Source: a virus
Taxonomy: Duplodnaviria; Caudoviricetes
Direction: 5' to 3' (one strand)
DNA length: 64,000 nucleotides
IMG/VR virus record: IMGVR_UViG_3300037297_000386
Numbering within the stretch: position 1 is the first letter of the stretch; every line of letters begins with the position of its first letter. The position numbers and the translations under genes were made by a program. Shown here one piece after another: positions 36,240 to 55,205 of this stretch. The notes beneath the pieces were generated by a model, which saw only the letters and a list, made by a program, of their open reading frames with translations, searched no databases and was not told the origin of the DNA.

Positions 36240-36346
36240 CCGATCCTTTTTTGTTAATTTTCACCAACAACGCTACTGTTTAAGCAAGGTGAATCTCTCA
36301 ATGCCCTAAGTAAAATTCCTAGAGCTCCGTTTATATCTCGATCCAT
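36240..36346 (-). pseudogene. tnpB: 3'-terminal relic of a tnpB gene (IS607-associated type) plus putative transposon right end
   Basis: Mini-ORF 36346-36254 reads MDRDINGALGILLRALRDSPCLNSSVVGEN, matching the TnpB RuvC-III motif DRDxNGAxxI. It is followed by ...AAAAAAGGATCGG, and its last 32 bp recur at 35167-35198. Confidence 0.7.
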
Positions 36347-36366
36347 TTTCTTACCTCTCATATATA

Positions 36367-45541: not shown

Positions 45542-46921
45542 TTATATTAACGTTTCTATTGGAAATTGGTAGACTACGTCCGTTTTGTCAAGTCTTTTAA
45601 TTCTAAATGATTGTTTTCCAGTTTTTCCAAAAAATAATTTATTTCTGACTACATCTAAACATTCATAACGAAACTCTTCCGTACCATCTTCATTAAACCT
45701 AATTATAATAGATCTATCTTTAATTGTAGGTACATTAATGGTCCAACAATTTGGAATTTCTACTGATTGCCTGGCTCCTTGAGCAGCCATTAATTCCAAA
45801 TCATCTGTATAAGGAGGTATTCTAGCTAAAATAAAACCTTGCGTATTTTGGCTGTATTCTGAGATTGGTCTCGGATTAACATATCTATCATAACCACCAT
45901 CAAACCCAACATTAAAACAGTATGGGCATCTTGTGCGAGGATGTTCTCTTCTCAATCCTTGACATCTACAGCGCTTTCCAGTCCATTTTCGTTTTAATAA
46001 AATTACTGTTTCACCAGTAACCTGTAACATAGCATCCAATCTTGCTAGATTACGATCTTGAAAAAACAGACCTCTTCCGTTATCAAACTCTCCACCTACA
46101 TAGCTTTTAACACATTCTCCACTAAAAGTAGCTTGTAAACTTGGTCTATGATAACTATTATAATCATAACTTGGGAAATCTAATGTATTTTGATCAGATA
46201 CGGATAAGTCTGTTGTCAACAAATCCTGTGATTTTGATCTATATCCATCTTCATCTACATTATATTCACCAATAGCCTCTGTATTACGGGGTGTTCCGTA
46301 TGATTGGTGCCAGGCAGCAGTTTCTTGAAAAATTACAGTATTTTGCTCTTCAACGCCATGCCATAATTTTACTTCGGTTCCTGCAAGATGTGTATCTATA
46401 TATGTAATATAAGCACCCCGTTGTATGTCTTCAACTATAAATGCCGTATCTGTTTTTGTGCTATATTGTAAAATTTCAGTATCAATTAATAGGAACCCTT
46501 TGTTTGGATAACCTTGTGTACTACCAACTTCTACTGTTGCTCCGTATGCATCAATATCTTCCTGTAATATGACAGTATTAGGATATTGATATACATTATT
46601 ACTAATTTGATCTAGATCTTCTATGTCGAACTCTTCTATATCAAACTCAGTCGCTCTAACGGCAAAATAGTATAAATTGCCTGGGTCAACGTTGATCACC
46701 GCCTGTTTATCTCTCGTTATAGCCTGAGGCCAATTATCAAAAACTCCAAAACGAGTGTCAGAATAATATATATTATAATGTATTATGTTGGAAACGTTAT
46801 TTGGAGTTGCTTGGCCCCATGTGAGCTTTAGACCCATCCCGTTGCCAACATCCTCTACAACTCTAAGGCCAACATAAAAATCCCATGTAGGTTTTGGTCT
46901 GCATCCAACCGAACTTGTCAC
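45542..46921 (-). CDS. Head-closure/neck protein with N-terminal FN3-like domain and CxC...CxxC motif
   Basis: LTWGQATP...HYNIYY...YYFAVRA (FN3-like). C-terminal GETVILLKRKWTGKRCRC...CPYCF..GF.GGY and P.IKDR..II...EFRY fit head-closure proteins. Confidence 0.6.
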   Translation of the reverse strand: MTSSVGCRPKPTWDFYVGLRVVEDVGNGMGLKLTWGQATPNNVSNIIHYNIYYSDTRFGVFDNWPQAITRDKQAVINVDPGNLYYFAVRATEFDIEEFDIEDLDQISNNVYQYPNTVILQEDIDAYGATVEVGSTQGYPNKGFLLIDTEILQYSTKTDTAFIVEDIQRGAYITYIDTHLAGTEVKLWHGVEEQNTVIFQETAAWHQSYGTPRNTEAIGEYNVDEDGYRSKSQDLLTTDLSVSDQNTLDFPSYDYNSYHRPSLQATFSGECVKSYVGGEFDNGRGLFFQDRNLARLDAMLQVTGETVILLKRKWTGKRCRCQGLRREHPRTRCPYCFNVGFDGGYDRYVNPRPISEYSQNTQGFILARIPPYTDDLELMAAQGARQSVEIPNCWTINVPTIKDRSIIIRFNEDGTEEFRYECLDVVRNKLFFGKTGKQSFRIKRLDKTDVVYQFPIETLI

Positions 46922-50477: not shown

Positions 50478-50606
50478 ATATAGTTCCCTAAAATATGGTC
50501 ATTTGTGACCAATAAGTTCTTGGGTAGAGGAGACTATAGGCTTCCTCCTTGAAACATTCCAATAGAAATCTTTCCTATTCCGATGTTCCAATCGTTGCTT
50601 CTGGCT
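50478..50606 (-). repeat. 129-bp structured element, copy 2 (inverted relative to 54667-54795); candidate TnpB omegaRNA scaffold/IS end
   Basis: 121/129 nt identical to the reverse complement of 54667-54795. Contains stems TTGGAACA/TGTTTCAA, GAGGA/TCCTC and TGGTCA-CAAA-TGACCA. Confidence 0.85.
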
Positions 50607-50678
50607 GATTACAAATTATTTATAGAAACCATAAATACTTAATATTACTCATAATATTCTCCTCAAATGTTTTTTCGA

Positions 50679-51530
50679 TTATGACAAGTTAATTGTTTGG
50701 CTTGAATATTTATTATAAATCTTCATAAATCTATCATACTTTCTTTCTAAAAATAAATCAGAATCATTATATAATATATTAAATAAATTTATATTCTTAA
50801 CTATTCCATTAACGGCCACATGGTATATTTTAGAACCATTTCTGTTTATATTATATACTTTGGCATCTATCCCTATCTTATTATATAACGACAATAAATC
50901 GTATGAAAAACCATTGCTTGTTGTAAATATAGTAGTTCGCGGCTTTTTTACTTGAACTGTTCCGTCGCCATCTATAACCCCTCGAAGAAAATCACCAATA
51001 CAGTTATCTGGAATCTTTGGGCACCTAAGTGTTTTAGTCTTTCTTAAAGTCATATTCAAGTTCATTAAATCTTTACATATTTCTTGATTTCTAATAACCA
51101 AACGTGACATATTTTTATTCTCATATATTATATAATTACTGTTCATCTTGTCATTTATTTTTTCAAGTATATATTTATCATCATGTTTAAGTCCCAATGA
51201 TAATATATAATAATCCCTATTCTTACGTTTTGATATACATCCATCAGTTAACAAAAGTCCCAGTATATATGCATTTTCTCTGGTCACAGCGGAAAAATAT
51301 TTAGAGTTAATATTATATTTTTTTGTTTTCCCTGTATTAGATTTCTTATGTAAATAACTTATTATGCTTTCATCTCTCCGTATTTTTAATACTTTATTAC
51401 CATATTGATATATTGCACTCCACTTTCTTCCTAACATTTTTTCTGCTTCTAATGGCATAACTGAAGCAAAATGGCTTTTCATATACTTGGTTTCGTCTTC
51501 AGACCATTTACGTTTCATTAACAGCCACAT
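50679..51530 (-). CDS. Free-standing LAGLIDADG homing endonuclease
   Basis: YILGLLLTDG and FLRGVIDGDG motifs, C-terminal LERKY. The start may be ATG 51518. Confidence 0.85.
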   Translation of the reverse strand: MWLLMKRKWSEDETKYMKSHFASVMPLEAEKMLGRKWSAIYQYGNKVLKIRRDESIISYLHKKSNTGKTKKYNINSKYFSAVTRENAYILGLLLTDGCISKRKNRDYYILSLGLKHDDKYILEKINDKMNSNYIIYENKNMSRLVIRNQEICKDLMNLNMTLRKTKTLRCPKIPDNCIGDFLRGVIDGDGTVQVKKPRTTIFTTSNGFSYDLLSLYNKIGIDAKVYNINRNGSKIYHVAVNGIVKNINLFNILYNDSDLFLERKYDRFMKIYNKYSSQTINLS

Positions 51531-51540
51531 CCTAATATTA

Positions 51541-52425
51541 TCATATTATCCGACGTTCTCTCAAATGTCGGAGGCGCAAATATGCTGGACTTATTGCTGT
51601 AACGCGAAATGTGCCGAGACCAAGAGGGTTTGGTTTAAGTGAACATTTTATCATTTTCAATTTTTCTTTATAATCCTGCAGTTGTGTACTATATTGCGTA
51701 TTTAATATTTCAGACACAGCTGGCGGCTGATAGGTTACGCCATTGTCTGTTATATTAAACTCCCGACCTTTTTCAATAAGCGCCTGAGCGGCAAGGGCCA
51801 ACAAAACAGCACCTTGTACAACTACTTCAGCAAATATTTCGTATATTTGTGGATCAGAAAATTTAAATTGACTAAAATGAGGATATTGGTTGAAACTCGA
51901 TAGACTATTTACTAAAAAACAAATAAGTTCAGTGTCCGTAAATATAGAACAGGGTACATCAACATATTCATTACCGTCTCTTACTTTTCGGGTTCCATCA
52001 TTTTTGACTCTACATTTTACCATTTTCAAAAGTATATTAATCCCATAAACTTCTTCTTTAGTAAAATTCCATGGCACCGGATCTCCAGGTGAAAAAATTG
52101 GTAAATCACTTTCTATAACATCACCAGAAGATATAACCATAAATTCGAAAGTATTCTCTACCTCAGTACCACCAATCTCAGCGACCCACCTGTGATACCA
52201 ATATCCATCCGGCGCATTCTCTGGAATATCATAATTTAAATAATATAATCCATCTTGGTTATCTGAAATCAAACCAACGCCAATATTAGACAACCTTCTT
52301 TGTATTGTTTCAGTAGAATCGTAAATCTCCACCTGAGGTGTATCATCAGCATTAACTGGGTTACCAACTGAATCTACAAATCTCACGTAAAGATCTACAT
52401 CTCTACCACGAATTCCGATGGCCAT
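51541..52425 (-). CDS. Probable head-tail adaptor/neck protein
   Basis: N-terminal beta-sandwich plus C-terminal helical region (EF.ITDNGVTYQPP.VSE.L). Located between head and neck genes; synteny-based call. Confidence 0.5.
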   Translation of the reverse strand: MAIGIRGRDVDLYVRFVDSVGNPVNADDTPQVEIYDSTETIQRRLSNIGVGLISDNQDGLYYLNYDIPENAPDGYWYHRWVAEIGGTEVENTFEFMVISSGDVIESDLPIFSPGDPVPWNFTKEEVYGINILLKMVKCRVKNDGTRKVRDGNEYVDVPCSIFTDTELICFLVNSLSSFNQYPHFSQFKFSDPQIYEIFAEVVVQGAVLLALAAQALIEKGREFNITDNGVTYQPPAVSEILNTQYSTQLQDYKEKLKMIKCSLKPNPLGLGTFRVTAISPAYLRLRHLRERRII

Positions 52426-52447
52426 ACAATGTGCCTCCAGCTAGAAT

Positions 52448-53221
52448 TTATTTTTCTTTGCTAGATTTTGGTCTTTTTATAACAACATTTTTATTTTCTT
52501 TTGGTTTATCTTCCTCTCTAATTTCCATAATCACTGAACCATCTTGCGTCTTAACTGCAACTTCATCAACAGATTTTATTTCTTCCTGTACTTCTTGATG
52601 ATTTTTATTATCCGCAATATCGGGGTCGATCACTGTAAACGGCTTTTCTGCAGTTACTACTGAAGATTTTGCAATAGGCCCAATAGGATTTACCATTGCT
52701 TCACGCGTGACTTTCATTACTACCTGTGACTGTTGAGATGTTCCATATTCGATCTCTGGTTTTAAAACAGCATCATCTTTTAATTTTTCTTCTTTTTCCG
52801 ATTTTGTGTTTGTCACTACGGAACCGTTTTCTTGTTTTTCATGTATAACCGGATTAAGATCACCTATACCATAATCAGCAAAATCAAAAACATCATCTTC
52901 ATTCCCACCATCAAAATTTGTCTCGATTACCACAGAGGTCTTAGTTTTTTTTGCATGAACAGTACCATCACTTTGTTTAATACGATTCAAATCTGGCGGA
53001 ACAGGATTAACTTGTTTACGCACAACATGTAATGTGTTAGAATCAAGTCGTCTACGCAAAGATCCATTTTTTATAGACAGATTGACTTGTGCAACAGTTA
53101 TATATGGATTAACCTTATACACATTAACAGTTTTTCCGGCTCGAACTTTAACACCCAAATCACTCAAACTAACATCCGAAGTACCTGGATTGCGCAACCA
53201 TAATTCTTTATTGTCTATCAT
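52448..53221 (-). CDS. Hypothetical protein (257 aa)
   Basis: Compact N-terminal domain and low-complexity acidic C-terminus. Confidence 0.6.
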   Translation of the reverse strand: MIDNKELWLRNPGTSDVSLSDLGVKVRAGKTVNVYKVNPYITVAQVNLSIKNGSLRRRLDSNTLHVVRKQVNPVPPDLNRIKQSDGTVHAKKTKTSVVIETNFDGGNEDDVFDFADYGIGDLNPVIHEKQENGSVVTNTKSEKEEKLKDDAVLKPEIEYGTSQQSQVVMKVTREAMVNPIGPIAKSSVVTAEKPFTVIDPDIADNKNHQEVQEEIKSVDEVAVKTQDGSVIMEIREEDKPKENKNVVIKRPKSSKEK

Positions 53222-53224
53222 ATC

Positions 53225-53470
53225 TTACTCCTTACTTTCTAATACTTCACCTAAAACTTTCACATTGACGGCTTGTGGCCCCTTATGGTTTTCTCCTAAT
53301 TCGAAAGATACTGGTTGCCCTGGTTTTAATGTTTTAAAGCCAGGCATATCAATATTTGTCCAATGTACAAACAAATCTTTTTCACCATTATCTCTTACTA
53401 CATATCCATAACCTCTACGGTGATCAAACCAAGCTACAAGCCCAGTTAAATCATTGCTTAATTCTGTCAT
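53225..53470 (-). CDS. cspA: Cold-shock domain protein
   Basis: G.V.WFD..RGYGY (RNP1), DLFVHWTNI (RNP2), GFKTLKPGQ.V.FE, KGPQA.NV. Confidence 0.9.
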   Translation of the reverse strand: MTELSNDLTGLVAWFDHRRGYGYVVRDNGEKDLFVHWTNIDMPGFKTLKPGQPVSFELGENHKGPQAVNVKVLGEVLESKE

Positions 53471-54351
53471 TTCTTATCTCCTTCTCTCGGGCATTTTGCC
53501 CACTTTTTTAAGTTATCTTCGGCCCACAATGGCTGAAGGTTTGTGTAATTACAGACTTTCTTAACATGCTCTCTATTAGTTAAGTCAAAACTAGATAGTG
53601 GAATAATATGATCTATATGCCACCTTCCATAATTATCCCAGGTCATGCCAATCTCGAATTTCTTTTCAAGATATAATTTTAATTCTTTTATAGAACATCC
53701 AAGATCTGCAACGGCTGAACCAGCACGATATCCTTTTTTAACTGCTTGATAGAACCTAGTTCTAAGTTTTTTCCTGATTTGTGCTGTTATACTGTTTTTT
53801 ATATACCGTTGCTCACGTGCTATTATTTCGTCTCTATTTTCTTTATACCGTTGTCTTTTTTCAGATAATATGCGTTCCTTATTTCTTTCATACCAATTCT
53901 TTTTTCTTTTAGCACATGCTTCTTTGTTTTTCTCGACATACTCTTTTTGTTTTATGGTCAATCTTGCCTTATTTTTCTCTCGATATTTTTTACTACCATT
54001 TTTTATAGATTCTTTGTTGTTTTCCCTATATTTTTTACAGCGGTCCTTATTCTTAGTGTGCCATTCAGCACTTTCTTTGCGTCTGCAATACTTACAACGG
54101 CTCTTTAACCCATCTTTAGTATTTTTACATCTACCAAAATTATCAACATCCAAAATTTTCATACATCTGCGACATTGTTTTTTATCATCTGAGTCTTGAT
54201 ATTCTATTTTGTTTGGGCCTTCTTTTTTCCATTTTTTAATATAATCGCGATGGCAATTTTTACATTGATTTCTAAGACCACTCGGACTGTCTTTTCGTCG
54301 ATAAAATCTAGAAAAATCTTTTAATTCTCCGCATTTACTACATTTCTTCAT
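53467..54351 (-). CDS. HNH-family endonuclease, paralog of 24573-25496
   Basis: KKCSKC and KQCRRC modules, WHIDHIIPL...NYTNLQPLWAEDNLKK. Confidence 0.85.
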   Translation of the reverse strand: MKKCSKCGELKDFSRFYRRKDSPSGLRNQCKNCHRDYIKKWKKEGPNKIEYQDSDDKKQCRRCMKILDVDNFGRCKNTKDGLKSRCKYCRRKESAEWHTKNKDRCKKYRENNKESIKNGSKKYREKNKARLTIKQKEYVEKNKEACAKRKKNWYERNKERILSEKRQRYKENRDEIIAREQRYIKNSITAQIRKKLRTRFYQAVKKGYRAGSAVADLGCSIKELKLYLEKKFEIGMTWDNYGRWHIDHIIPLSSFDLTNREHVKKVCNYTNLQPLWAEDNLKKWAKCPREGDKK

Positions 54352-54603
54352 GATTTTCCTCTTTATTAGAAAAATAGACCAATCCCTACATCTTAAATCA
54401 AAATATTAATAGAATTCTTAGATATTTCGACAGGTAGCATCCTTTCATCCTCCGATGCTAGCTCTAAAAGGATTGAAATAGCGCTTTTGATCGTTGAATA
54501 TCCGACTGACCAGAAATTATATAATCAGCACTACCGCTAAATTTGCTTATTATTTTGGCACGCTTTTTACGCACAAATGATCCCTCCATTTTAAGGTACA
54601 CTA

Positions 54604-54795
54604 ATGCCGAAGTGCGATTCGGATTATAACGCTGCCTGTAATATCGCTACGCCGTTGATGGCTATTAGCCAGAAGCAACGATTGGAACACAAAAATAGAA
54701 AAGGCTTTTATTGGAATGTTTCAAGGAGGAAGCCTATAGTCTCCTCTACCCAAGAACTTATTGGTCACAAATGACCATATTTTAGGGAACTATAT
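54604..54795 (+). pseudogene. tnpB: 3'-terminal relic of a tnpB/Cas12f-like gene overlapping copy 1 of the 129-bp element
   Basis: ORF 54604-54774 reads MPKCDSDYNAACNIATPLMAISQKQRLEHKNRKGFYW..., and DxDYNAAxNIA is the RuvC-III motif. 54667-54795 is repeated at 50478-50606. Confidence 0.65.
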
Positions 54796-54809
54796 TGGTG
54801 ATTTTTAGC

Positions 54810-55205
54810 TTAGATTGCAGCTAAATAAGAAATTAAATAAGAAGTTCTTAGAGATGAAATATCTCCATGCTCTGTATTGGTGGGCTCTAATAAAACTGTT
54901 CTTGCCGTAGGTATGCCAGTATAAGAATAATTTGACCGATGCGAATGATAGCGATCTTGGTTAGATAACCTATTTAAAAAATAAGTTAATTCTATATGAT
55001 TAAGTTTGCTATTAATTATTATATCGTCGCGCTGTTTGCATATATTAGCAGGTTTATGTTTCAATGAAGCAATAACTATTGGCACATAATTATCACACAA
55101 ACAACTATTTTTGTCTCTAACTATTTTAAATCCTTGAAAAAAATATAATTTTCCTAGGCCGTATTTCTTTTTAATCTTTTTTATAAGTTTATTTTTATAT
55201 TTCAT
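54810..55205 (-). CDS. Small paralog family member 6
   Basis: IKKKYGLGKLYF ... LRTSYLISYLAAI. Confidence 0.65.
   Translation of the reverse strand: MKYKNKLIKKIKKKYGLGKLYFFQGFKIVRDKNSCLCDNYVPIVIASLKHKPANICKQRDDIIINSKLNHIELTYFLNRLSNQDRYHSHRSNYSYTGIPTARTVLLEPTNTEHGDISSLRTSYLISYLAAI

Follow-up and report, generated by a model that had tools for sequence, protein, structure and literature searches.

In a giant wetland phage we identified a short tnpB relic (relic A) that is probably a recent and largely inert remnant, truncated on its 5' side, of an IS607-type insertion sequence with a Cas12f-like TnpB. The phage is represented by an IMG/VR virus record of 162,416 bp with 33% G+C, estimated by CheckV to be ~40% complete; unless noted otherwise, positions refer to the window, the whole stretch of 64,000 nucleotides analysed, which corresponds to bases 87692-151691 of the record on the reverse strand (Table 1). 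The relic is real but a fairly ordinary transposon leftover, and omegaRNAs that rely on TnpB supplied in trans have been discussed before (PMC10055086). The locus adds a Cas12f-like TnpB family of IS607 type, multi-copy and active in this giant wetland phage, and gives the predicted guide-RNA scaffold of the family, which has covariation support and lies outside all Rfam models. The orphan scaffolds found here provide a natural test case for whether TnpB guides can come from loci that no longer have a nuclease.

Table 1. Positions of the tnpB relics, scaffold elements and neighbouring features (window coordinates unless stated)
Feature	Position	Strand	Remarks
56-codon frame of relic A	54604-54774	+	ATG-started; reads MPKCDSDYNAACNIATP... 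(full: MPKCDSDYNAACNIATPLMAISQKQRLEHKNRKGFYWNVSRRKPIVSSTQELIGHK); TGA stop 54772-54774
RuvC-III motif DSDYNAACNI	54616-54645	+	alignment via P0002 to AsCas12f; count compared with shuffles
Predicted complete omegaRNA scaffold and right end	54659-54795	+	137 nt; fold, relatives, covariation, covariance model
Hairpin P1	54659-54671	+	short; in codons after RuvC-III
Hairpin P2	54682-54724	+	long; over NRxGF(Y/F)W codons
Hairpin P3	54725-54747	+	TA(T/C)AGT loop; over QExIVP codons
Hairpin P4	54749-54787	+	variable; around stop codon
Tail AACTATAT (AACTAT)	54788-54795	+	conserved; family form (T)AACT(A/G)T
Guide-equivalent flank TGGTGATTTTTAGCTTAGAT	54796-54815	+	first non-conserved bases past right end
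Relic B, second orphan copy	50478-50609	-	93% identical to relic A; TnpB residues 368-405 and right end
Copy C	record bases 2-109 (outside window)		95% identical; last 28 codons and right end
N-terminal tnpB part	record bases 161779-162414 (outside window)		residues 1-212, 99.5% identical to P0002; last 636 bases, cut by record end
Relic of different TnpB subfamily	36257-36361	-	MRGKKMDRDINGALGILLRAL... / MDRDINGALGILLRAL...; RuvC-III to end only
HNH endonuclease gene	53467-54351	-	
131-aa ORF	54810-55205	-	stop at 54810
Spacer without tnpB homology	54352-54609	strandless	contains AT-rich motif and 45-codon minus-strand ORF

The tnpB fragment and its parent nuclease

An earlier note on this DNA had described a plus-strand frame in a gap of ~460 bp, and we indeed found relic A in a 458-bp gap, bounded by the start of an HNH gene (54351, minus strand) and the stop of a 131-aa ORF (54810, minus strand). 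The genes flanking relic A are all on the minus strand, and its frame is thus antisense to them. Codons 3-56 of the frame (54610-54771) correspond to TnpB residues 352-405 and show 92.6% identity over 54 aa to the intact relative P0002 (tblastn); the ATG CCG that precedes them does not derive from tnpB. The homology sets in abruptly at 54610 and breaks off sharply at 54795. Searched against 5.8 billion protein clusters, the 56-aa peptide matched five longer proteins with PF07282 (Cas12f1-like TNB / OrfB zinc ribbon), four of them 405 aa in length, with 96% of the peptide covered at 80-93% identity (best E 3.6e-25). For the C-terminus of intact 405-aa proteins the identity was 91-93%; the four closest database proteins came from a single 311,797-bp contig. 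This homology bears out the earlier reading of the frame as a TnpB/Cas12f-like relic extending from RuvC-III to the end. The profile search that had been proposed as a check gave no Pfam or NCBIfam match for the peptide alone, even at E 10; the lack of a Pfam match is explained by the fragment spanning just the last few model positions. Used in a metagenome scan, the peptide brought up no relative.

The 5' side of the relic turned out differently from the degenerate sequence that had been thought to precede it. Within the spacer 54352-54609, tnpB homology was undetectable in every frame, which indicates that the sequence upstream of relic A has been replaced and is not degenerate tnpB, and tblastn of homologues against the record revealed no other TnpB parts, N-terminal fragments included, near the relic. 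One marsh metagenome and the probable source sample provided contigs for comparison. Among these, a phage-specific unitig stops at 54639 and picks up again at 54766, confirming the repeat boundaries, and the contigs of other copies part from relic A at 54613, upstream of which they read ...QCEACKYE. Judged from its sequence, relic A is a 5'-truncated tnpB pseudogene fragment with a predicted ncRNA-like right end and would be best annotated as such.

The RuvC-III motif of relic A is not a chance occurrence: six-frame translations contained exactly two matches to the loose pattern D.D.N[AG]A..I in the window, and two in the whole 162-kb record, whereas the mean over 40 mononucleotide shuffles of the window was 0.025. 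The two matches are relic A itself and the relic at 36257-36361. In relic A, the codon at 54622-54624 encodes the catalytic RuvC-III Asp (D356 of P0002). P0002 contains PF07282 at 58 bits, its OrfB_IS605 match being sub-threshold, and its best matches among solved structures were the AsCas12f chains 7WJU, 8J12 and 8J3R (E 1e-15), compared with E 1.4e-8 for the TnpB chain 9NZP. Its LKLEN and DSDYNAACNIATP blocks align with IQMED and NADYNAARNIAIP of AsCas12f (RuvC-II and RuvC-III, respectively), and its DSDYNAACNIA aligns with NADYNAARNIA (chains 8j3r/7wju), upholding the assignment of the motif. P0002 and Cas12f thus share a near-identical RuvC-III block, DYNAA.NIA.P; in contrast to Cas12f, the P0002-type protein has 405 aa and is multi-copy like an insertion sequence, its predicted guide scaffold is encoded by a transposon end, and there is no CRISPR array here (a search of the window revealed no tandem array).

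Only residues 352-405 remain in relic A. The RuvC-I Asp, the RuvC-II Glu and both CxxC pairs of the zinc ribbon are missing, CSNC and CEAC lying upstream of the breakpoint, and as the zinc ribbon is lost along with two RuvC residues out of three, the peptide cannot be a nuclease. That the 56-aa frame is nevertheless translated as a small protein, for example as a TnpB C-terminal fragment competing for omegaRNA, is barely credible to us: the frame is open, starts with ATG and has AAGG ~8 nt upstream, but no promoter was found, the corresponding frame of relic B contains a stop and lacks a start, none of the 5.8 billion clusters holds a match of similar length and no Pfam or NCBIfam model matches the peptide.

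The type of the parent element was read from its relatives. In the distant relatives L015, L024 and L025, a gene for a Resolvase-domain (serine-recombinase) TnpA ends at the start of tnpB, and we therefore read the element as IS607-type. No TnpA is found beside tnpB in the closest relatives, where, as in this phage, tnpB stands alone, and neither a serine nor a Y1 TnpA was detected in the 162-kb record (~40% complete). The 75 bp preceding the end-of-record tnpB had no co-oriented similarity to 54352-54609; the record contains just this one left end, and the sequences upstream of tnpB in relatives had diverged too far for comparison. As this leaves no left-end similarity upstream, relic A is a truncation and not a PATE-like mini-element, and without a left end, and without TnpA in the 162-kb record, it cannot transpose.

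The predicted guide-RNA scaffold and right end

For the RNA, we used as the comparison set 21 viral loci (L006-L026) with TnpB homologues 34-61% identical, the 3' ends of which align to the element. The layout of four hairpins and a tail recurs in 15 relatives; no helix upstream of P1 was consistently conserved among them. In P3, compensatory changes were found in five of the seven pairs (15 sequences). When P2 and P3 were analysed together in the two relics and eight closer relatives, 13 of the 27 pairs had changed on both sides and 83% of the cells were paired, a level of covariation reached by none of 500 shuffles; slid controls gave 4-10 pairs. Supported by this covariation, 54659-54795 is the predicted omegaRNA scaffold of the TnpB family, and its completeness in relic A agrees with the earlier proposal that the omegaRNA-coding region had been kept. 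The fold z-score of the relic A scaffold is modest, -1.9.

A covariance model built for the scaffold scored relic A at 130.6 bits and relic B at 123.5 bits, and the tnpB-attached scaffolds of the relatives at 100-125 bits. Applied to the 162-kb record, the model matched relics A and B and copy C only, all dispersed singles. In five related phage records (~820 kb) it found no orphan scaffolds, the copies there being all tnpB-attached. Orphan scaffolds are thus not a general trait of the family. The window gave no Rfam family at gathering score and the three copies gave none at E<=1; a SCARNA6 match in the Rfam search was spurious. An exact 24-mer from the scaffold had no match among viral contigs.

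The NRxGF(Y/F)W and QExIVP motifs are conserved in protein across relatives that are 34-61% identical, and the same codons build P2 and P3 (54694-54747). If the predicted helices form, these codons would be a clear case of dual protein and RNA coding.

The closest known counterpart in organization is the IS607 TnpB-omegaRNA of the Clostridium botulinum IStron (PMC10690162), with which relic A shares a PF07282 TnpB origin and a predicted scaffold that overlaps the 3' end of tnpB and extends to the right end. The guide position in the flank is likewise the same, and some distant relatives of the element have a serine-recombinase TnpA directly upstream. Unlike such elements, relic A consists of the last 54 codons and the right end only, has no TnpA, left end or intron, and its scaffold sequence has no Rfam match. 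The presence of IS607 elements in viruses has been noted and their maintenance driven by TnpB shown experimentally (PMC10690162). As in ISDra2 TnpB with its reRNA (Karvelis et al., PMC8612924), the predicted RNA would come from the right end, with the guide position immediately 3' of the boundary; the clade (see the 9nzp value of only 1.4e-8 above), the transposase type and the scaffold are different. PATEs, which are non-autonomous IS200/IS605 derivatives with an omegaRNA but no gene for a nuclease, have been proposed to be served in trans by TnpB from other copies (Meers et al., PMC10055086, Discussion). Relic A resembles them in encoding a predicted omegaRNA but no protein and in needing TnpB in trans; PATEs, however, keep both left and right ends and are TnpA-mobilisable, whereas relic A has no left end.

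Copies of the right end and their possible use

The right end of relic A is repeated in the record. The repeat comprises its last 129-132 bp (54664/54667-54795), spanning the final 36 codons and extending 21 nt beyond the stop, and the 129-bp element that had been described as following the frame is thus real but overlaps it. Relic B immediately follows a LAGLIDADG endonuclease gene. The 5' arm of its P1 is missing, a stop codon lies just before it and there is no start codon; in addition, the Gly of NRxGFYW that is invariant in all relatives has changed to Asp (G->D). The missing start and the Gly->Asp change at an invariant site imply relaxed protein constraint in this copy. Copy C is cut by the start of the record. 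All three copies have an identical last base (...GGGAACTATAT) and unrelated flanks, and the 5' limits of the truncated copies vary, from residue 352 in A to residue 368 in B. Among the three, 11 sites are variable; 7 of these are unpaired and 4 are in stems but still pair through G-U or G-C.

Both ends of the record fall in tnpB copies, and the record was probably cut at the multi-copy tnpB repeat. The C-terminal ending differs between copies: it is (E/K)LIGHK (window 54757-54771, 50502-50516) in the truncated ones, namely A, B, C and P0003 (189 aa), and ESSGHK in the four intact 405-aa proteins. An older sublineage of the element may be the source of the relics. Next to relic B, the LAGLIDADG ORF opens with ATG TGG CTG (window 51522-51530), and its TGGCTG is complementary to CAGCCA (50602-50607), the surviving 3' arm of P1. 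The LAGLIDADG gene may thus occupy the former place of the P1 loop; coincidence is also possible.

The relic at 36257-36361 shares 69-77% identity with the C-terminal ends of short PF07282 proteins (E 3e-6). The earlier note had placed it at 36240-36346, correctly as a trimmed TnpB C-terminus; contrary to what had been stated, its family is not unrelated to that of relic A, both being TnpB. A further PF07282 signal at 45917-46042 was weak and sub-threshold (14 bits); it lies in a 459-aa ORF (45542-46921, minus strand) without a Pfam family and is probably an unrelated zinc-ribbon-like stretch.

We propose that the element was inserted into the giant phage and that everything before TnpB residue 352 was lost later. 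What is left is 186 bp consisting of the RuvC-III codons, the C-terminal tail and the right end, with phage DNA then in the guide position. The constant right end and varying 5' breakpoints would be consistent with one-sided deletion or with aborted copying from the right-end side; for the latter, we infer cleavage by TnpB, repair synthesis from the right flank and an abort inside the element. Selection may also have contributed. The truncated copies all keep the 3' end and no 5'-only relic was found in the record, a pattern of retention that is suggestive of selection, as is the similar trimming of the second TnpB subfamily; the low divergence among the copies, with the helices spared, would fit purifying selection on the RNA as well. 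As there are only three or four copies, neither neutrality nor selection is established, and one-sided truncation and selection on the RNA are not separated.

The sequence following the right end is of interest as a guide. The guide put forward in the earlier note starts at the first non-conserved base past the right end and is therefore in the right place. In relic A the flank TGGTGATTTTTAGCTTAGAT overlaps the stop of the minus-strand 131-aa ORF. With 3 or fewer mismatches in 16 nt allowed, the flanks of A, B and C matched nowhere else in the record, so that no target appeared there beyond their own sites, and the nearest other 20-nt site for the relic A flank has 4 mismatches; any flank of an insertion sequence would be expected to lack a second match in this way. 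Within the LAGLIDADG gene, 54788-54805 had a 17/18 match that consisted mostly of scaffold letters and is at chance level. Upstream of relic A, no plus-strand promoter site exceeded chance. P4 is followed by UAUUUU and is thereby terminator-like, its stem being 6 bp and containing G+C.

If the plus strand is transcribed, the resulting RNA could be fit for loading in trans by a near-identical TnpB elsewhere in the phage, and the loaded TnpB could then target genomes with the uninterrupted site. A nuclease of the same family that would act in trans is plausibly present, as the same record holds the N-terminal half of a near-identical tnpB (residues 1-212, 99.5% identical to P0002), the kind of closely related gene that the earlier note had called for. 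The scaffold of relic A is complete and at 130.6 bits scores as high as the tnpB-attached copies (100-125 bits), the right end is kept in all truncated copies, substitutions spare the helices, the flank is in the correct guide position and the use of omegaRNAs in trans has been proposed (PMC10055086). These features are what one would see in a working orphan guide module, a plus-strand RNA bound in trans by the phage TnpB that would cut co-infecting relatives or repaired genomes at the uninterrupted site and promote both the retention and the spread of the relic and its neighbourhood. We nevertheless regard such a module as unlikely, as no plus-strand promoter-like site rises above chance, relic A is antisense to every neighbouring gene, P4 and the U-tract form a terminator-like structure ahead of the guide, relic B lacks half of P1, orphan copies are absent from the five related phage records and the guides have no further match in the record. 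Relic A is a possible candidate guide RNA, with no sign of use so far.

A still bolder version, which we consider quite doubtful, has the phage keeping orphan omegaRNA modules purposely, to be transcribed and then loaded by its intact Cas12f-like TnpB, each of them marking a genomic junction so that co-infecting relatives with the uninterrupted site would be cut and converted. If true, the giant phage would possess a system for gene drive or competition that works with several guides and no array, by which neighbouring homing-endonuclease genes could be carried along. More generally, a dispersed array-free RNA-guided system can be hypothesized, as in the earlier note; if true, phage TnpB would form dispersed multi-guide systems, intermediate between transposon guides and CRISPR arrays.

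The gene neighbourhood

The neighbours of relic A are named by PHROGs only as a LAGLIDADG-type endonuclease, a cold-shock protein, HNH/endonuclease VII and a methyltransferase-like protein. No tRNA genes were found, and none of 50,697 phage records matched the gap in a blastn search. The 45-codon minus-strand ORF within the spacer 54352-54609 had no family match.

The orphan copies are both positioned immediately 3' of a gene stop: in the minus-strand sense, relic A begins ~15-35 nt past the stop of the 131-aa ORF, and relic B follows the LAGLIDADG gene. Such placement, and the terminator-like 6-bp G+C-containing P4 hairpin beside a T-run, could mean that the hairpin-rich right end has been recruited by the abutting phage operons to mark the end of their transcripts, either as a terminator or as an RNA-stabilising structure. 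We find this very improbable, since relics A and B are oriented oppositely relative to the operon, the T-run is 3' of the hairpin in the element's own sense only and the fold z-score is the modest -1.9. The reading of relic A as an insertion-sequence remnant is in line with its surroundings in other phages: L027 and L028 keep the synteny CSD-g257-g294-LAGLIDADG without the HNH gene and without either relic, and as they share the synteny but not the element, the relic insertions are recent and lineage-specific.

An AT-rich motif, TCTATTAATATTTT..., located at 54393-54428 in the minus sense, 5' of the HNH gene, recurs widely in the record. The same motif is found at record bases 161736-161752, 27-43 nt before the ATG of the end-of-record tnpB. 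From its placement, the motif looks like a phage promoter motif, and transcription of tnpB would then be controlled by the phage.

Relics A and B lie in inverted orientation, right ends outward, and enclose a 4.3-kb block (window 50478-54795). The block contains the LAGLIDADG and HNH genes, both of homing-endonuclease type, a cold-shock gene and two unknown genes. In L027 and L028, the homologue of a 99-aa gene is located on the opposite side of the block.
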